DNA from: a virus
Lineage: Duplodnaviria > Heunggongvirae > Uroviricota > Caudoviricetes
DNA: 64,000 bases
Reading direction: 5' to 3' (one strand)
Virus record (IMG/VR): IMGVR_UViG_2576861193_000004
Coordinates: 1-64,000 of that record
The notes under the pieces were generated by a model. That model searched no databases, had not been told where the DNA came from, and saw nothing but the letters and a program-made list of their open reading frames with translations. Positions 5,890-51,105 of this stretch are shown here, piece by piece (positions within the stretch are counted from its first letter, which is position 1; every line of letters starts with the position of its first letter). Position numbers and translations under genes: made by a program.

Positions 5890-6006
5890 GTGTTTCTCCT
5901 TGTTGTGATTTGGCCGATGGCGCTATGCGCGTTGGGCTTTCGTTCATTCGTGGCTCTTTCGAGCTGTTAAATGATAGATCAGCACTTACTTATTATCTAT
6001 CAAAAA

Positions 6007-6438
6007 TCAACGGGGAGTAATAAAGCGTTCAGAGCCTAATCGCTCTAATTCAACGATGGCCATCTTTGACGCCTGAACGATCATGTCTCGGCGATGCGAA
6101 AAGGCGGCGACAGCATGTTTGTATATGTCTGCGATGTGCCGTGCTTCATCCAACTTCTGCCGTTTAGACAGATACTGTGGGTTTGTTTTAACCTTAGCGT
6201 CCAGTACAGACTCGTTGAACTTAATGCCGTTCATACTCAAGTTCTTACGCTCTGTGTCGTATAGCTTTGCTTCAACAGCTTCAAGGTTAAGTTTTGCCTC
6301 TGCGACATCTCGATCTGCCTGCGCTAGTTTTGACCCATACTCCATTAAAAGCCGTGGCTGTTTACGCCATACTTCCTCAAGGTTGTCGCGGTCGAACTCC
6401 AGATCGGCCATGATTTTAGAAAAAATATCAGTGTTCAC
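6007..6438 (-). CDS. hypothetical protein, possible UvsY-like recombination mediator
   Basis: 143 aa, predicted helical; position next to the recombinase, FEN and SSB genes and weak pattern resemblance to T4 UvsY (137 aa). Not verified. Confidence 0.35.
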   Translation of the reverse strand: MNTDIFSKIMADLEFDRDNLEEVWRKQPRLLMEYGSKLAQADRDVAEAKLNLEAVEAKLYDTERKNLSMNGIKFNESVLDAKVKTNPQYLSKRQKLDEARHIADIYKHAVAAFSHRRDMIVQASKMAIVELERLGSERFITPR

Positions 6439-6645
6439 TCTAATAGGTTCCTACTTATAAAATCTGTATCAATTATATCAAACAGAGAACGGGTTTATGG
6501 CGTCATGTCAACTTTGTTCAGGGGAAGATATTGAGATCACCGAAGATAATTAGTTGTCTTATTTTGGTAAGCTGTGCTGACCATCTTTAGGTCACATACA
6601 TGAGATGGATGGGGTGTGGCATGAACGGATGAAATTCAGTCGCCG

Positions 6646-6674
6646 TTGACAGATGTCAACACTGTGAATAGAAT
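6646..6674 (+). promoter_or_regulatory. sigma70-type promoter with a palindromic overlap (TTGACAgaTGTCAA)
   Basis: TTGACA (6646..6651), 17-nt spacer, TAGAAT (6669..6674), then GGAGG Shine-Dalgarno and ATG at 6692; the -35 lies within a perfect 6-bp inverted repeat that could be an operator. Confidence 0.5.
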
Positions 6675-6691
6675 ACCATTATCGGAGGCGA

Positions 6692-6916
6692 ATGAAGCAA
6701 CATCCGAATAAGCATATTCAAGCAGCCATTGACTATGCATTAAGTAAAGGCTGGATCTGGGTAGCTGCTGGTGGTGCTGCACATTGTTTTTGCAGACTGC
6801 GATGCGGTAATCCAGAAGGTGAACACAAAACTCACCAAATGAGCGTATGGTCGACTCCGGGTAATCCCGAAAACCATGCCAAACAGATCAAACGAATGGT
6901 TGATCGTTGTAAATGA
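6692..6916 (+). CDS. small moron protein, weakly HicA-like (YcfA family?)
   Basis: 74 aa with KGW...GGAAH...P...IKRMV pattern loosely resembling HicA toxins; has its own promoter and terminator. Family assignment is tentative. Confidence 0.3.
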   Translation: MKQHPNKHIQAAIDYALSKGWIWVAAGGAAHCFCRLRCGNPEGEHKTHQMSVWSTPGNPENHAKQIKRMVDRCK

Positions 6917-6920
6917 TTTC

Positions 6921-6945
6921 AAGGCGGCATTAGCCGCCTTTTGCA
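6921..6945 (+). terminator. rho-independent terminator
   Basis: Hairpin aaggcggc-atta-gccgcctt followed by TTTG, 5 nt after the stop of the 74-aa gene. Confidence 0.55.
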
Positions 6946-6976
6946 GAAACTGTCCAACTATCTTCAAAGGAAAACT

Positions 6977-7540
6977 ATGGCGCTTTATAACTTCACTCTG
7001 ACGCTCTCAGGCGTATCGTATGAGACGGAAGGACTGGAAGACGCGCTGTACCAAAACGGCTGTGACGATGCGCTAATTTGCGCATATGGAAACTCCGTCT
7101 ATGTAGAATTTGACCGCGAAGCACAATCACTTGATGCAGCTATCGCATCTGCGGTCGACAATATTGAATCAGCCGGTATCGGTGCAATTGTTGAATCCGT
7201 CGACTCGGCTCTTGTGGGCTTAAGCGATATCGCGGAACTGACAGACCTGTCTCGCCAGGCAGTGGCGTTGCTCAAAGACGGTAAGCGCGGAAGCGGCGAC
7301 TTCCCTTGCCCTGTACAACGCATAAAAGGCCAGTCTCCTCTCTGGGATTGGGCTGATGTGGCTGAATGGCTCATGAATAACGGACGACTTAAAGAGGGCG
7401 ATCAAATTGTCCAAAATGCCCGAACTTTGAGTAAATGGAATCTGGCGCTTCGAAACAGCGTCTCGAAAGATTTCAACGAAATAGAGCAAATTGCGGAGAA
7501 ACTGATTAAACGCCGCAAAGATATTGCGAAATGCGCATAA
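6977..7540 (+). CDS. putative DNA-binding protein with central helix-turn-helix
   Basis: ATG at 6977 with AAGGA Shine-Dalgarno (track start 6941 is TTG); segment GLSDIAELTDLSRQAVALLKDGKRG looks like an HTH; N-terminal domain of unknown fold. Confidence 0.4.
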   Translation: MALYNFTLTLSGVSYETEGLEDALYQNGCDDALICAYGNSVYVEFDREAQSLDAAIASAVDNIESAGIGAIVESVDSALVGLSDIAELTDLSRQAVALLKDGKRGSGDFPCPVQRIKGQSPLWDWADVAEWLMNNGRLKEGDQIVQNARTLSKWNLALRNSVSKDFNEIEQIAEKLIKRRKDIAKCA

Positions 7541-7656
7541 TGATGCCCGCCAATTGGCGGGCATCTGTTCTCTGTAAAGGTGTCTGGCATCGTCTGGTTC
7601 GTTAACGTTTACTAAACCAATGGTGACAAAAATTAGTTATCTTTGAAAAATAAAGG

Positions 7657-7685
7657 TTGCATGAAAAGAAGGGGTATGCGTTAAT
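7657..7685 (+). promoter_or_regulatory. cspA-type promoter
   Basis: TTGCAT -35 and GTTAAT -10 separated by 17 nt, AT-rich upstream element; closely resembles the E. coli cspA promoter (TTGCAT / CTTAAT). Confidence 0.5.
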
Positions 7686-7691
7686 AGCATC

Positions 7692-7869
7692 GTTGGTTTG
7701 CAAGACAGACCTTATGTAAGCAGTTTTAGTAAAGCAGTCTCAGTTCAGTGTTATCTTCTGATTTCCCTTCTTCGTGAGTCTCCTCCTTAAGTGCCTAAGT
7801 AAGTCCCAATCTATACAGATCAAATTCTCGCCGCACTATGTGGCTCACAAAATTAAGAAGGTAATATCT
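7692..7869 (+). promoter_or_regulatory. long cspA-like 5' untranslated leader (candidate RNA thermosensor / cold box)
   Basis: About 178-nt leader with segments resembling the E. coli cspA leader (CAGACC, AAAGCAG, GTAGTAA, AAGGTAATA before the ATG). Compared from memory. Confidence 0.45.
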
Positions 7870-8085
7870 ATGTCTAATAAAATGACTGGTTTAGTAAAAT
7901 GGTTTAACTCTGATAAAGGCTTTGGCTTTATTTCTCCTGCTGATGGCAGTAAAGATGTTTTTGTACATTTTTCGGCAATTCAGAGTAATAATTTCCGCAC
8001 TTTGGAAGAAGGCCAGCAGGTCGAATTCTCTATCGAGAATGGGGCTAAAGGCCCAGCAGCAGCAAATGTCGTTGCTCTAAGCTGA
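7870..8085 (+). CDS. csp: cold-shock protein, CspA family
   Basis: 70 aa [38 protein letters not shown]... with RNP1/RNP2 motifs, near-identical in pattern to E. coli CspA/CspB/CspG; AAGAAGG Shine-Dalgarno 7 nt upstream. Confidence 0.95.
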
Positions 8086-8173
8086 TTCAACGCTGATGAT
8101 CCTCATTTCTACAATAACGAAGACGGTGTAAGCCTGAGTGGATAGATTTGTAGGATTGTACAAGTTGAATAAA

Positions 8174-8203
8174 TTAGCATGGTAAGGCCATGCTAATTAA
8201 ATC
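8174..8203 (+). terminator. hairpin terminator candidate after csp
   Basis: Stem ttagcatgg / ccatgctaa with taag loop, followed by TTAAAT. Confidence 0.4.
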
Positions 8204-8357
8204 GACACAACGGCCAGTTTATTCCATAAAAGTGAATTGCCCATTGTGGCGAAATGCGGGGTTGCCGCATGAATAGTCAAAGGCAGAAGCTAACTGCCGG
8301 CATGGCAAAACAAAGTGCGTAAGAGGAGTGACTTCCTCAACAAGCGCCATAATTCTT

Positions 8358-8390
8358 TATAAACCCGCCAACAGGCGGGTTTTCTTTATT
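8358..8390. terminator. bidirectional rho-independent terminator between csp and the polymerase gene
   Basis: Hairpin cccgcc-aaca-ggcggg flanked by an A-run upstream and ttttctttatt downstream; serves the plus-strand csp unit and the minus-strand polymerase gene ending at 8389. Confidence 0.6.
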
Positions 8391-11300
8391 ACTTATTTAT
8401 TGTCTCCGCGATATCAGCCAGAATGGCCTCCAGTCGCTCTCCTTCTTCCGGTCGGAAGTACAGGATATTCGGGTTAAATCCGTAGAAGACGGTTGCATCA
8501 AGCTCTGGGAAGTACTCCTTACGACCAATCAGATCTGATGGTTTACTCTTATTGTTAAATAGTGCGGTTGAACGACTACCACACGTCAAAATGTAGGTTG
8601 GTCGTACAAGATTAATTTCTTCCCGCATAAAGTCTGTGAACTGGCCTATCTCGTCTTTGGTATAGTCTTTCTCTTTGTCCTTAACCTTCTTACAAACACC
8701 CGTGACATAAAGATCGCCCATGCGCAGATCTCCAACTGTCAGTAGTTTTGCCTTAAAGTCGTCGTATCCGTTCTCCATGAAGTAGCCGGTACGAGCGTCA
8801 TTGCCGTTCGCATTGTCCAGAATGATCATGATTTTGGGTTTAATACCAATAGTCGGGCGTATCAACTCCTCACCCAAGCCCATTTCAGCCGCCATACGTG
8901 TCATGAGTACGTTGATTTCGGCAGAACGCTTAGGATTCATTTCGAACGGACGTGATGCTTTAACAGCGTCAATGATGAGATTGCCCATCAGCTCAGCCTG
9001 GTCGCGCAGTCGTTCAGGATCAGTTGCTGGCAGACTGCCTGGCTCAATTGACGCAAAAGCCCCTACTTTATGAAGCGACTCGCGTACACGACTGTTACAT
9101 GCACGCTTCTCGACCGCTTCATCGAATTGTGCCACTGACTCGAATTTGCCACCAACTTTCTCACGCGCACGCATAATTGCCTGACAACCATTTTCAGAAC
9201 AGCCTTTCACAGCAGAGAATGGCGCATACAGTGCCTGACTGCCGTCTTCGAGTGTGCGGATCTCAATTCGGTTAGATGACACATTAACGTCTGGTGGCAA
9301 TACGCGAATGCCATAGGTCAGCGCATCCTTCACCAGCCCCTGATGCTTATCCTCGCCCAGAATGGTGAGCGCAGCTGCGAAGAACTCAGCAGGGTAGTGC
9401 GTCTTTAGCCACATAGACTGATAACTGATTAAAGAATAAGCAACGGAGTGTGATTTATTGAAGGCATATCCACCGAACTTCTCAAAGGCGTCCCATATTT
9501 CTTGGGCTTTTTCCTTACTGAGACCTTCTTGTTCAGAGACGATCTCCACGTAGTCTATGCCGTCACTAATAGCCTCGCTGTAGCTTCTACGCTTACCGTC
9601 TGAGCAATCCAGTTTTGCGTGTTTGTGAACCTCTACAGTACCTCCATTTTTGAGTGACAGTGTCACCCAGCCTGCTTGTGCTCGTTCTACAAAATCGCTG
9701 CCGATCGCTTTCATCTTATCCATGTTCTTTTTACCGATAGCGGAACGCAGAGCGTCTGCTTCGGCCATAGAGAACCCGGCAAGTACTCGGGAACTTTGCA
9801 TGATTTGTTCCTGATAGAGCAAAACACCATTAGTCTCCCGGGTGACTTCCTCAAGACGCGGATGAATTGAATGTGGAGCCATGAAGCCTTTGGCCACGGA
9901 GACATAGTCGTCCAACATGCCGGATTGGATCGGGCCAGGTCGGAAGAGTGCGGTCGTGGCGACAACGGTTTTAAAGCTCATTGGCTCAATGCCACCGCCT
10001 AGATCTTTAAGCAGCTTGCGCATGGGGCCGGACTCCAGCTGGAATACGCCCTGTGTATACCCTGCAGCAAAACCATCCAGCACCTTGCGATCTTCAAGAG
10101 AAATGGCATCAAGATTGATATCTTCACCTGTGTTCTCTTTTATGTAGCGTTTTGCACTATCGAGCAAATCGAGAGTTGCCAGGCCAAGCACGTCCAGCTT
10201 AATTAGGCCCATAGCCTCGCAGTAACGCTTATCAAATGCGATACAACGCGCGTCACCACGGCGCTCAACCGGTGTACGTTCTGTCAGAGGAACACCTGCT
10301 ACAATCATCCCTGCCGCATGTCTACCAAAGCCACGCATAAGGCTTTGTAACTTGCAGGCTGCATTGAATGCATCAGGATATTTTGTTGCGTATTTGTCGA
10401 GACTTGCCAGTTGTTCGCGCAGCTCTTCCAATGGAAGGCTATCATCCTCGACGTTCTTCAGTTCTTTTGATACCGCCATATCTGCGGACTCCACACCATA
10501 AATACGAGCGGTGTCACGTAGTGCAGAGGCTGCGCCCAGGTAGGTGAAGTTCGGAATGCCTGCAACGTAATCTTCGCCGTAGCGTTCATTCAGATACTCG
10601 ATCACCTCATGGCGACGTGCCTGGCTGAAGTCCAAATCCGCATCTGGCAAGTCGAGACGCTCAGGGTTGATGAAACGTTCAAACAGAAGACCGTGACGGA
10701 TAGGGTCGACGTTGGTTATGCCTATGCACCATGCCACCAAAGAGCCAGCGGAGGAACCACGACCAGGCCCGACAGGAATGCCAGTTTCACGGCTGTGATT
10801 CATCAGATCGCGTACCATCAGGAAGTAACCACAAAATCCCAGGCGAGTAAGCGTGTCCATTTCGTACTTAAGTCGCTCAACATAAACCCTGTTCTCAGAA
10901 GCCGGTGGTGTGTATCCAAACTCTTTTGTGGTAAGACGTTTACGCAGCCCTGCAACAGCCAGTTTCATCAGCGTTGCAGGTTCGTCGTCTGCCATCTTGG
11001 GCAGTGCTGGTGGCAATTCATGCCAGCGCCATGTACAGGCTTCGATAATGGAGTCCTGCGTTGTTGAGGCCATTGCAGCTGTTACCGGCACATCCATGCG
11101 AACGGAGAAGGCTTTAAGCGCCTCAAGGAGATGGCGGCGACCATTGACGGCGTTATCTCGCTGGTGGGGTATACGCAGACGATGCGGCTGGTCGATTTTT
11201 ATGTTGTTCGTAACCATGTGCGCAATGTCTTTAATGTCTGCATCGTCGATCGATTCGTAATAAGCGGGATAGAACGCTACTGGCTCTATTTTCAGTGCGC

Positions 11301-11895
11301 TGGCTACTTTCATCGCTCGGACGTTAATCTGGTCGTAGAATGGGGTAGGGTGCGGATAAACCACGCTATAGAAGTTGTCTTTCCCGCCCGCTGTAATCAG
11401 TGAGCTTATGATTTTTGCAAAATCGTTGCGTTGGAACACGCTACCGATGTCGGAAGTGAGCAGGATGATGTTGCCTTTGGCATATGTAGAAACCAACTGT
11501 TCGAGCGAGAGACGCGGTACAAAGTAGAACTGTTCTCGTGTGTTGGCCACCGTCATTAGTTCGCAGATGTCGCGATATCCTTGCTCATTTTTAATTAGAG
11601 CGGTAAACGAGTAGTTACGTCCCCGCTCTAATGATTCCATACATCTCATAGATTCTTTAGCAAGTTTAGCCCGGTGCTCGTATGTGGGATCATCAACGAT
11701 ATTTAGTTTCACACCACAAATAACCGCCATGTCGTCACCAGCGGCACGTTGTAGTGGAATAACACTCGCAATATTCATGCTATCTGCTGAAATTACAGCG
11801 GTGTAGCCAGCTTCTCTGGCAATCTTCACCGCGTTTTCTGCTTTTAGAGCCGACTCCCCAAGTGAGAAGTCAGTTCGAACCATCAGTGCTTTCAT
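8389..11895 (-). CDS. dnaE: DNA polymerase III alpha subunit (DnaE-type replicative polymerase)
   Basis: 1168 aa; N-terminal PHP-like region, polymerase core motifs (e.g. GYAFNKSHSVAYSLISYQSMWLKTHYPAEFFAA) and a C-terminal OB-fold region aligning by eye with E. coli DnaE. Confidence 0.9.
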   Translation of the reverse strand: MKALMVRTDFSLGESALKAENAVKIAREAGYTAVISADSMNIASVIPLQRAAGDDMAVICGVKLNIVDDPTYEHRAKLAKESMRCMESLERGRNYSFTALIKNEQGYRDICELMTVANTREQFYFVPRLSLEQLVSTYAKGNIILLTSDIGSVFQRNDFAKIISSLITAGGKDNFYSVVYPHPTPFYDQINVRAMKVASALKIEPVAFYPAYYESIDDADIKDIAHMVTNNIKIDQPHRLRIPHQRDNAVNGRRHLLEALKAFSVRMDVPVTAAMASTTQDSIIEACTWRWHELPPALPKMADDEPATLMKLAVAGLRKRLTTKEFGYTPPASENRVYVERLKYEMDTLTRLGFCGYFLMVRDLMNHSRETGIPVGPGRGSSAGSLVAWCIGITNVDPIRHGLLFERFINPERLDLPDADLDFSQARRHEVIEYLNERYGEDYVAGIPNFTYLGAASALRDTARIYGVESADMAVSKELKNVEDDSLPLEELREQLASLDKYATKYPDAFNAACKLQSLMRGFGRHAAGMIVAGVPLTERTPVERRGDARCIAFDKRYCEAMGLIKLDVLGLATLDLLDSAKRYIKENTGEDINLDAISLEDRKVLDGFAAGYTQGVFQLESGPMRKLLKDLGGGIEPMSFKTVVATTALFRPGPIQSGMLDDYVSVAKGFMAPHSIHPRLEEVTRETNGVLLYQEQIMQSSRVLAGFSMAEADALRSAIGKKNMDKMKAIGSDFVERAQAGWVTLSLKNGGTVEVHKHAKLDCSDGKRRSYSEAISDGIDYVEIVSEQEGLSKEKAQEIWDAFEKFGGYAFNKSHSVAYSLISYQSMWLKTHYPAEFFAAALTILGEDKHQGLVKDALTYGIRVLPPDVNVSSNRIEIRTLEDGSQALYAPFSAVKGCSENGCQAIMRAREKVGGKFESVAQFDEAVEKRACNSRVRESLHKVGAFASIEPGSLPATDPERLRDQAELMGNLIIDAVKASRPFEMNPKRSAEINVLMTRMAAEMGLGEELIRPTIGIKPKIMIILDNANGNDARTGYFMENGYDDFKAKLLTVGDLRMGDLYVTGVCKKVKDKEKDYTKDEIGQFTDFMREEINLVRPTYILTCGSRSTALFNNKSKPSDLIGRKEYFPELDATVFYGFNPNILYFRPEEGERLEAILADIAETINK

Positions 11896-50217: not shown

Positions 50218-50691
50218 TTAACCTCTCGTAAATCCGGCTTTTCTGGCAGCCTCAAGAATCGCTTCTGAGAACTGCTTCTCGCTAATTTCCACCGCTCTTT
50301 CCAGAAAGTGTGGCCCAACACGGGGTTTAACACCGGCAATTGGTGGGTTTGTCACGTTCTTCATTCGAGAAAGATAACCGAGTCGGTATTTACCCAGCTC
50401 CATGTACTTAGCATAGTCACCTACTTCTACACCCGGATGCCCCTGACGTGGTTTTGCTCCAGACACAGAAAGCTCAATGCGCAGCCCTGAATAACCTTCT
50501 TTAATCACCCTGGCAAAGATAGCTGTCTCCAGAGATCCGGTTTCCAGCGGGGCCATTGCACGGCTGAGGCGCTCAACCAAACGCGCCAGCTTTTCCATGT
50601 CCCGAATAAGATATCGCTTAAATGCTTTCTGGCTGTTATTGAGTCTATTCCCCGCACGTTTGAACTGATGCGCATCGTATTTCAGACCCAT
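50218..50691 (-). CDS. head-tail joining / tail completion protein candidate (gpZ-like by position)
   Basis: 157-aa ORF in the neck gene block; assignment by synteny only. Confidence 0.4.
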   Translation of the reverse strand: MGLKYDAHQFKRAGNRLNNSQKAFKRYLIRDMEKLARLVERLSRAMAPLETGSLETAIFARVIKEGYSGLRIELSVSGAKPRQGHPGVEVGDYAKYMELGKYRLGYLSRMKNVTNPPIAGVKPRVGPHFLERAVEISEKQFSEAILEAARKAGFTRG

Positions 50692-51026
50692 ATATTCGCC
50701 CCTACTTCAAGATGCCCAGGTCTTCCTCGTAGCCCCCAGCGGCGATGAACACTGGACACCTTTAATTTTTGACCTTCAAGGATCAGTACATCATCAAGTT
50801 GTACAGCCGCTTCTAAAGGGACAACTAACACAGCATCAAACAGCTCCAGACTCGCCTTACCACGACTACCAGAGCTATCAGCACGAACTGACGATTTCTC
50901 ATTACTCTGTTCGAACTTAACCACGCCGACATTCGTCTTCCTGACGAATTGTAATTGCGCCTCACCGTAAACGTTCTTTGCGCCAAAGCGGTAGATCGCA
51001 ATTTCTGTTTGCCATGAAATATTCAT
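50682..51026 (-). CDS. head-tail adaptor candidate (gpFII-like by position)
   Basis: Start at ATG 51026 with GGGAGAGAG Shine-Dalgarno; about 114 aa. Confidence 0.4.
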   Translation of the reverse strand: MNISWQTEIAIYRFGAKNVYGEAQLQFVRKTNVGVVKFEQSNEKSSVRADSSGSRGKASLELFDAVLVVPLEAAVQLDDVLILEGQKLKVSSVHRRWGLRGRPGHLEVGANIWV

Positions 51027-51105
51027 GCTCTCTCCCTGTTGTTGTCGGTCGCTCTCATTACTGGCCAAAAACCCTTTAGACCAAAAGTAAATAATGCGAC
51101 TGGCG

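Follow-up and report, generated by a model that had tools for sequence, protein, structure and literature searches.

Introduction

HicAB toxin-antitoxin operons, described in Escherichia coli, B. pseudomallei, S. pneumoniae and Yersinia pestis (HicA3B3), have a small first gene encoding an α-β3-α protein that resembles a double-stranded RNA-binding domain (dsRBD), a second gene whose two-part product joins an N-terminal partner domain to a C-terminal DNA-binding domain, and a palindromic operator at the promoter; they are found on mobile elements and are induced by stress. PDC-M06 is a two-gene cassette (CAS_00046, 497 RefSeq instances) and one of 145 phage defence candidates predicted from their embedding in BREX, DISARM or type I restriction-modification (RM) loci (Payne et al., bioRxiv 10.1101/2024.01.29.577857). 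Cold-shock genes with a cspA-type promoter and a long leader are carried by the cryptic prophage Qin (cspB with cspF, cspI) and by lambdoid phages (Tritos, 2H10), and the prophage csp cassettes of E. coli LF82 are expressed as morons (PMC9928086). Here we analysed a stretch of 64,000 nucleotides of a Caudoviricetes genome (IMG/VR record IMGVR_UViG_2576861193_000004, positions 1 to 64,000), called the window below, in which a PDC-M06 gene pair and a csp gene lie side by side. The best explanation of this locus, which we regard as probable, is that it holds two cassettes, namely a self-repressing toxin-antitoxin or abortive-infection operon of the HicAB type and a cspB-type cold-shock gene with its own regulation.

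The region 5900-8500 of the window is 99.8% identical to Escherichia phage Cyrano, which is the pLF82 plasmid of E. coli LF82, and about 60 E. coli plasmids of 95-150 kb match it at 99.8-100% identity; the source of the window and these near-identical plasmids are SSU5-like phage-plasmids. The Cyrano authors labelled the products of the gene pair HicA and putative HicB, and its moron status has already been published for that near-identical element (PMC9928086).

Results

Two separate cassettes inserted at one locus

The locus and its flanks comprise the following features:
6482-8388, no strand assigned: accessory island of two cassettes between the uvsY-like gene and dnaE, delimited by the empty site in a relative
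6007-6438, minus strand: uvsY-like (mediator) gene, left flank of the island
8389-11895, minus strand: dnaE (DNA polymerase III alpha), right flank of the island

The 1.9-kb insert carries three plus-strand open reading frames (ORFs) of 74, 187 and 71 aa, the last being csp. In the sister phage PhiR41_1 the site is empty, the uvsY-like gene and dnaE being just 125 nt apart, and the similarity between the window and this phage stops near 6481 and picks up again at the dnaE stop codon. The preliminary description of the locus, made from its letters, had placed three plus-strand genes between minus-strand replication genes, and the ORFs and the empty site bear this out. The gene pair is found at the same locus without csp in E. 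coli p88COLEC-2 and Y. pestis pMT1, csp is found there without the gene pair in Klebsiella and Citrobacter phage-plasmids, and about 63 plasmids carry both cassettes together. The pair-only match ends at a terminator at 7542-7565, just before dnaE, and the csp-only match begins at about 7647, at the csp promoter. Since pair-only and csp-only relatives exist, the island consists of two separate, unrelated cassettes, which came to occupy one hot spot, and is not one unit.

A moron island with its own promoters and terminators had been proposed; that part is supported by the empty site, by the pair-only and csp-only relatives and by published transcription, and the grouping of the three genes as one unit had to be given up. 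Regarding the usual marks of phage morons, the gene pair is absent from close relatives, has its own promoter and terminator and is independently transcribed in lysogens; csp is likewise absent from relatives and has its own promoter and terminator. It should be noted that promoter-like sites are not enriched in the region, as the scan found 4 against 5.6 expected, so that the promoter scan alone is at chance level and the weight therefore rests on cross-species conservation.

The left flank further includes minus-strand genes for a gp32-like single-stranded DNA-binding protein and a 5'-3' exonuclease. In one of the Klebsiella phage-plasmids (L006, 3251-5751), a gene for a NUMOD4 HNH endonuclease and an unannotated gap of about 1.2 kb lie beside dnaE, which may be interrupted or split in that lineage.

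The gene pair forms an operon that is transcribed in lysogens

The first cassette contains the following features:
6646-6674, plus strand: sigma-70 promoter TTGACA-17-TAGAAT of the two-gene operon, with 11/12 consensus matches
6645-6660, no strand assigned: perfect palindrome GTTGAC-agat-GTCAAC over the -35 element, putative operator on the basis of its conservation with the helix-turn-helix (HTH) domain
6692-6916, plus strand: gene for the 74-aa HicA-fold protein (PDC-M06A)
6921-6940, plus strand: intercistronic GC-rich hairpin AAGGCGGC-atta-GCCGCCTT, with an 8-bp stem and a ΔG of -14.2
6977-7540, plus strand: gene for the 187-aa partner protein (PDC-M06B)
7542-7565, plus strand: intrinsic terminator closing the cassette, with a 10-bp stem, 8 GC pairs and a T-rich tail

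The two genes lie on the same strand with a gap of 60 nt, in which the promoter scan found no promoter-like site. When relatives of the small protein were scanned in one genome per species, they were found in 303 species spanning Gammaproteobacteria, Neisseria, Cardiobacteriaceae, Planctomycetes, Balneolales, Verrucomicrobia and Latescibacterota, and an exhaustive profile search put the family at 698 clusters (50% identity). In 78 of the 83 loci examined, which belong to several phyla, the small gene is directly followed on the same strand by a gene for a relative of the 187-aa protein. The intergenic gap is below 40 nt in 50 of these 78 paired loci, many gaps being of 3-15 nt, and the genes overlap in Histophilus. 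The pair is also carried by prophages, plasmids and integrase islands. In the window, the two proteins match the PADLOC models PDC-M06A (E 1.2e-19) and PDC-M06B (E 1.3e-32), adjacent in that order.

Published RNA-seq data for Cyrano (Misson et al. 2023, PMC9928086) show that the pair is transcribed in the lysogen. In LB (lysogeny broth), CYRAN_51 ('HicA') and CYRAN_50 ('putative HicB') stand 30x and 14x, respectively, above the prophage background. Expressed as log2 of fragments per kilobase per million (fpkm), the values for CYRAN_51 (74 aa) are 8.4/7.9 in LB, about 12.9 after 1 h in macrophages and 14.1/14.3 after 6 h; those for CYRAN_50 (187 aa) are 7.1/7.2, about 11.0 and 13.0/13.3, and the uvsY-like and dnaE flanks remain at about 3-5.5 in all conditions (PMC9928086, S1 table). 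From this table, the gene pair rises about 60-fold from the LB overnight culture to 6 h in macrophages, with the neighbouring phage genes near background. The RNA of both genes rises and falls together over the five conditions, that of the first gene being about 2-4x that of the second. Such a strong de-repression under stress would be typical of toxin-antitoxin operons, an analogy and not a proof.

Taken together, the lack of an internal promoter, the adjacency in 78/83 loci, the short gaps or overlap, the match to the PDC-M06 pair and the co-variation of the RNA show that the 74-aa and 187-aa genes are one operon; the earlier suggestion that the small gene and the HTH gene are uncoupled is not supported.

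That suggestion had been based on a terminator of its own for the 74-aa gene. The hairpin does exist at 6921-6940. Its function as a terminator is doubtful, as it is followed by TTG only, or by TTTTG when the two closing A-U pairs are open, and as the terminator scan did not call it; it is thus a leaky terminator at best, or an mRNA stabiliser, either of which fits the higher RNA level of the first gene. Most of the 28 loci whose gap is at least 40 nt have a comparable hairpin, AAGGCGG...CCGCCTT.

A palindrome over the -35 element accompanies the HTH domain of the partner

The preliminary description had noticed a near-consensus sigma-70 promoter with its -35 element inside a palindrome, and both were confirmed (6646-6674 and 6645-6660). 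GTTGAC-agat-GTCAAC is the sole such site in the 64 kb of the window, and the same layout of promoter and palindrome is found in loci of Yersinia, Histophilus and Pseudoalteromonas. The upstream regions of the loci are otherwise unalignable, and most of them hold GTT(G/T)AC-N4-GT(C/A)AAC. When up to 1 mismatch is allowed within 120 nt of the start codon of the small gene, 57 of the 64 loci with an HTH-bearing partner contain the motif (50 of them exactly) and 0 of the 17 loci without the HTH do; the background rate over 120-nt windows is no more than 1.3%, a figure that includes true sites. It lies mostly 45-55 nt before the ATG, its left arm being the -35 element. Because the palindrome tracks the presence of the HTH domain, we infer that it is the autoregulatory operator of the first cassette; placed over the -35 element, it would have the classic layout of an autorepressed operon.

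Further copies of the motif were seen. At 6505-6517, 148 nt upstream of the promoter palindrome, the operator half-site occurs once more (ATGTCAACtttGT), and some other loci (L136, L123) have two full or partial palindromes. In Y. pestis pMT1 (L007, L124), where the gene pair sits at the same locus with IS100 nearby, the palindrome is degraded to GTTGACACGCGCTCAC, which has 3 mismatches to GTTGAC-N4-GTCAAC; the 3-mismatch window scored for L124 in the motif count is a different site from GTTGACACGCGCTCAC.

The small protein has a HicA-like fold and a conserved Cys/His set

The AlphaFold model of the 74-aa protein (predicted local distance difference test, pLDDT, 88.5) is an α-β-β-(short helix)-β-α structure. 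It has the dsRBD-like α1-β1-β2-β3-α2 arrangement that defines the HicA fold, and HicA toxins are its best structural matches. The term 'HicA-like' used for it previously is therefore justified for the fold; for the sequence it failed in Pfam, NCBIfam, a PDB profile search and hhalign.

Eleven residues (H4, K7, W21, H31, C38, S51, W53, T55, P56, H62 and C73) do not vary across 37 close relatives. The wider family has the pattern C38 ... GC ... C73-x-H, of which the middle ligand is a His in the subfamily of the window. This exchange of Cys and His at the middle ligand is read as a structural zinc site, through which the protein probably binds zinc. The invariant H31 lies directly before β2 in a G-x-S-x-H context, and it may correspond to the catalytic His that HicA has at the start of β2. 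The 74-aa protein is possibly a toxin.

A similarity of the 74-aa protein to the RuBisCO small subunit was discarded as noise, since it is sub-threshold (E 0.2-0.7, and 0.0023 at best among 42 relatives). A relative of the 74-aa protein from Shewanella sp. (P0039) bears the NCBI name 'ribulose bisphosphate carboxylase small subunit', and is probably misnamed owing to this sub-threshold RbcS similarity.

The partner protein combines a ferredoxin-like domain with a winged HTH

The model of the 187-aa protein (pLDDT 87.2) has three parts, namely an N-domain, a winged HTH of the AlpA/Xis/MerR type and a pair of long helices. The N-domain is a ferredoxin-like β-α-β-β-α-β structure whose best matches are HMA, ACT and AsnC-RAM domains. 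The partial RNase H-like N-domain of HicB was not found in it, and no HicB fold is among the top 60 structural matches of the protein, which is not HicB-like. It matches PHROG 2620, labelled 'excisionase and transcriptional regulator'; a match to CagE/TrbE (16 bits, for a cutoff of 21) was ignored. The partners found in Planctomycetes, Verrucomicrobia and Cardiobacteriaceae consist of nothing but the N-domain (83-108 aa), which marks this domain as the conserved counterpart of the small protein.

The csp cassette has a cspA-type promoter and leader

The second cassette contains the following features:
7657-7685, plus strand: cspA-type promoter, aligned to the K-12 cspA, cspB, cspG and cspI promoters
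7692-7869, plus strand: csp leader of about 178 nt, from Rfam RF01766 model positions 1-163 and the alignment to cspA-family leaders
7870-8085, plus strand: gene for a CspB/CspG-like cold-shock protein of 71 aa, with a Pfam CSD match of 115 bits
8243-8353, plus strand: conserved structured core of the csp 3' region, from RNAalifold and pair counts
8361-8382, plus strand: terminator of the csp transcript, from the terminator scan, conserved in the cspB cassettes of lambdoid phages, Qin among them

The protein is identical to K-12 CspB and CspG at 58/71 positions each and to CspA at 51/71, and it scores 146.6 bits with the NCBIfam CspG equivalog model (cutoff 144). Its RNP motifs KGFGFI and VFVHF, read off the sequence, are intact, as expected of a cold-shock domain of the CspA family. 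The promoter has an A/T-rich upstream stretch, a -35 element TTGCAT (7657-7662), a spacing of 17 nt and TGcGTTAAT ending at 7685. Rfam RF01766, the cspA thermoregulator, matches 7692-8110 over model positions 1-428 with 185.7 bits, above the gathering threshold of 78. Alignment and folding at 37 °C show that the leader keeps the cold-box hairpin (7695-7711), a GCC...GGC hairpin, the Shine-Dalgarno context and the helix between leader and coding region.

A cspA-like promoter with a long leader had been predicted, together with an alignment to host cspA leaders as a check; this alignment was run, and both elements are homologous to those of K-12 cspA, cspB, cspG and cspI. The thermosensor-like structure looked for on folding was recovered as regards the cold-box hairpin and the leader-to-coding helix, the stability of the leader (z -1.75) being uninformative. 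Given this homology of promoter and leader to the cspA family, cold regulation is a reasonable proposal and csp is likely to be cold-induced.

The closest chromosomal DNA is cspB of Qin, with 71% identity over 7675-8390, including about 300 nt after the stop codon. In the Cyrano record OV696614.1 (locus L001, 5642-6489, equivalent to 7541-8388 of the window), nothing is annotated between 'HicB' and dnaE, the csp region being at about 50,263-51,100 of that record, so that csp does not appear in the published tables of morons and of RNA-seq values. The terminator at 8361-8382 may act in both directions, because it abuts the dnaE stop codon.

The csp 3' region contains a conserved RNA fold

Downstream of csp, RNAalifold was applied to 7 cassettes and then to 19 unique variants from phage-plasmids, Qin-type prophages and PHB10-type phages. 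The core has a closing helix (8243-8251 paired with 8345-8353) and hairpins at 8254-8270, 8282-8298 and 8323-8338, and is followed by the terminator; two single-stranded stretches, the loop AAGCUAA and AAAGUGCGUAAG (8312-8323; AAAGTGCGTAAG in DNA form), are invariant. In this alignment, 97.6% of cells are paired and 7-8 pairs covary, against 0-2 in slid controls. The minimum free energy (MFE) of 8086-8392 has a z-score of -6.5 against shuffles, the G-U pairs fit the csp-sense strand, and the last ~140 nt are about 81-88% conserved, more than the coding sequence. Rfam gave no match for the 3' region other than a partial one to sroH (17.7 bits) restricted to the terminator, and no tRNA or tmRNA was found there. 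A covariance model detected the element only after cspB-type genes, and neither after K-12 cspA, cspG and cspI nor elsewhere in the window; we found no literature on an RNA in the cspB 3' region. The fold could serve to stabilise or process the csp mRNA, or could give rise to a 3'-derived small RNA.

Two other candidates were rejected. A conserved small ORF is contradicted by a 1-nt indel between the window and K-12, which shifts every frame, and a pairing of AAAGTGCGTAAG with the csp coding region (ΔG -14.6 in the window) is absent from five other cassettes and is attributed to chance.

The same fold with its terminator (8243-8382 in the window) was seen in K-12 Qin (L010, minus strand, 6035-6187), in the Klebsiella phage-plasmid L006 (3090-3250) and in L196 (1184-1330). 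Between csp and this core, the window has a perfect 12-bp hairpin (arms at about 8170-8181 and 8187-8198) within the repeat I1 (8164-8206). The equivalent part of K-12 Qin, between cspB and the core (L010, minus strand, about 6190-6260), carries AAGGAGG and, after it, a 10-codon ORF, MKQWLAYLAKS, which may be an unannotated micro-ORF.

Discussion

For the first cassette, we observed that the two genes form an operon and are kept together across phyla, that their products have the folds described, that the operator palindrome goes with the HTH, and that the pair is transcribed in the lysogen. Binding, toxicity and a benefit to the element, through plasmid addiction and/or defence against other phages, are part of the model that we propose from these observations. 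In this first cassette (~6482-7565), the strong sigma-70 promoter would drive the gene of a 74-aa HicA-fold, putatively zinc-binding protein and, beyond a leaky hairpin, that of its 187-aa partner. The ferredoxin-like N-domain of the partner would bind and neutralise the small protein, and its winged HTH, as a dimer on GTTGAC-N4-GTCAAC over the -35 element, would shut the promoter. A stress that removes the partner would then de-repress the operon and free the small protein. In the second cassette (~7640-8388), csp, of a type that many lambdoid prophages carry, would most likely supply an extra RNA chaperone after a temperature downshift.

Several results weigh against this model. The HicA family PF07927 of Pfam matched neither the window protein nor 41 diverse relatives, the 74-aa protein had no NCBIfam match, and phmmer and profile searches of the PDB retrieved no HicA for it; hhalign gave it a probability of 7.5% against E. 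coli HicA, and gave the 187-aa protein 0.15% against E. coli HicB. The defence role of PDC-M06 is a candidate prediction to which no mechanism is assigned. The induction in macrophages may be due to something other than a lost repressor, and a hairpin that favours the mRNA of the putative toxin over that of the antitoxin would be unusual for a toxin-antitoxin operon. Regarding csp, most of the RF01766 score comes from the coding part, the leader alone giving a truncated match of 28.8 bits (E 5e-6), under the family threshold of 78. The MFE z-score of the leader is not unusually stable either, although a genuine cspA leader also fails this test (z +0.43), which makes it uninformative on thermosensing.

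In the rival account that survives best, the pair is a non-toxic regulatory module in which the 187-aa protein is an ordinary AlpA-type transcription factor acting on its own promoter and perhaps on others of the phage-plasmid, and the small protein its co-regulator or anti-repressor, with neither killing nor arrest of the cell. It draws on the resemblance of the partner's DNA-binding domain to AlpA, Xis and MerR regulators and on the PHROG 2620 label; the small protein is without sequence link to any toxin family, and the excess of its RNA over that of the partner would be easier to tolerate if it were harmless. Yet the pair is kept in several phyla where the partner is without DNA-binding domain, which speaks for neutralisation more than for co-regulation, HicA toxins come first among the structural matches of the small protein, and the cassette, which travels on prophages, plasmids and integrase islands, was singled out for its embedding in BREX, DISARM or type I RM loci. 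We consider the regulatory module unlikely.

For the second cassette, csp could be a passively carried piece of prophage or host DNA without a role in the cold, or could serve the phage as an RNA chaperone or antiterminator in the lytic cycle. Qin-type prophages have this cassette too, along with its 3' region, some related phage-plasmids do without csp, and the LF82 prophage genes cspB and cspI reach high transcript levels at 37 °C and inside macrophages, not just in the cold (PMC9928086). However, the promoter, the cold box, the leader and the coding sequence are intact and evidently constrained, and distinct csp copies are kept in phage-plasmid lineages of E. coli, Klebsiella and Citrobacter, so that both versions of this account appear improbable, more so than the regulatory module discussed above.

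The view of the preliminary description, in which three genes are transcribed independently and the HicA-like and HTH proteins are functionally separated by a terminator, can point to the GC-rich hairpin followed by TTTTG and to the 2-4x excess of first-gene RNA, and is nonetheless very hard to sustain against a 187-aa gene without promoter, a pairing in 78/83 loci, many of them with gaps of 3-15 nt or overlaps, the co-regulation of both genes and a hairpin that was not called as a terminator.

We return to the model of a self-repressing HicAB-type operon and a separately regulated cspB-type gene, which was found probable above. A wider and more tentative proposal, about which we remain doubtful, is that PDC-M06 is a distinct, widespread class of toxin-antitoxin or defence systems with a zinc HicA-fold effector, a ferredoxin-like holder and an optional winged HTH that reads an almost universal GTTGAC-N4-GTCAAC operator, strongly switched on in macrophages and spread over some 300 species (~700 clusters at 50% identity), and that the ~110-nt RNA of four helices is a new family. 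After cspB-type genes, this RNA may control the stability or processing of prophage cold-shock transcripts, or yield a regulatory RNA.

SSU5-like phage-plasmids are common in clinical Enterobacteriaceae and include Y. pestis pMT1, which has the same pair. If the pair works as a toxin-antitoxin or defence module, it would help to explain the upkeep of these elements and the exclusion of rivals, and would supply an orphan PADLOC candidate with its first mechanism and an operator that can be tested. The ~60-fold rise in macrophages, in a Crohn's-associated strain, makes the pair worth considering in studies of persistence. The csp cassette shows that cold-shock genes travel between lambdoid prophages and phage-plasmids together with their complete regulation, and its conserved 3' RNA fold offers RNA biology an inexpensive target. 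These results do not overturn current views and are mostly a refinement of known things.

Comparison with known systems

The gene pair resembles HicAB operons in its small first gene for an α-β3-α dsRBD-like protein, in the two-part product of the second gene, in the putative palindromic operator at the promoter, in its location on mobile elements and in its induction under stress. Unlike HicAB, it has no sequence-level relation to HicA or HicB. The small protein differs from HicA in the conserved Cys/His set that suggests a zinc site, and the partner differs from HicB in its ferredoxin-like N-domain and in its AlpA/MerR winged HTH, which replaces the ribbon-helix-helix or Xre domain. Both proteins match the PDC-M06A and PDC-M06B models in the order of that cassette, and the pair belongs to PDC-M06; unlike the loci from which PDC-M06 was predicted, that of the window lies in the replication region of a phage-plasmid and not in a defence locus. 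We found no literature on the function of PDC-M06. Because neither HicA nor HicB is matched by sequence, and HicB is not matched by fold either, the pair is filed as PDC-M06, a HicAB-like variant, and not as a member of HicAB.

The csp cassette shares with those of Qin and the lambdoid phages a cold-shock gene with a cspA-type promoter and long leader and, with their cspB cassettes, a 3' region with the same folded core and terminator. It differs from them in its position between replication genes and not between Q and the lysis genes, in having no divergent cspF, and in the hairpin carried by the first half of its 3' region. With the cspA mRNA thermosensor (RF01766) it has in common a full-length match, the cold-box hairpin, the leader-to-coding helix and the Shine-Dalgarno context; unlike that thermosensor, its leader is about 20 nt longer and much diverged, and thermosensing would here follow by homology. 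The csp cassette is thus of a familiar type, the prophage cspB cassette whose leader is cspA-like, found at a new place. The present analysis contributes the link between operator and HTH, the minimal form of the partner with the N-domain only, the probable zinc site, the anatomy in two cassettes, the csp gene left unannotated in Cyrano and the structured RNA of its 3' region.

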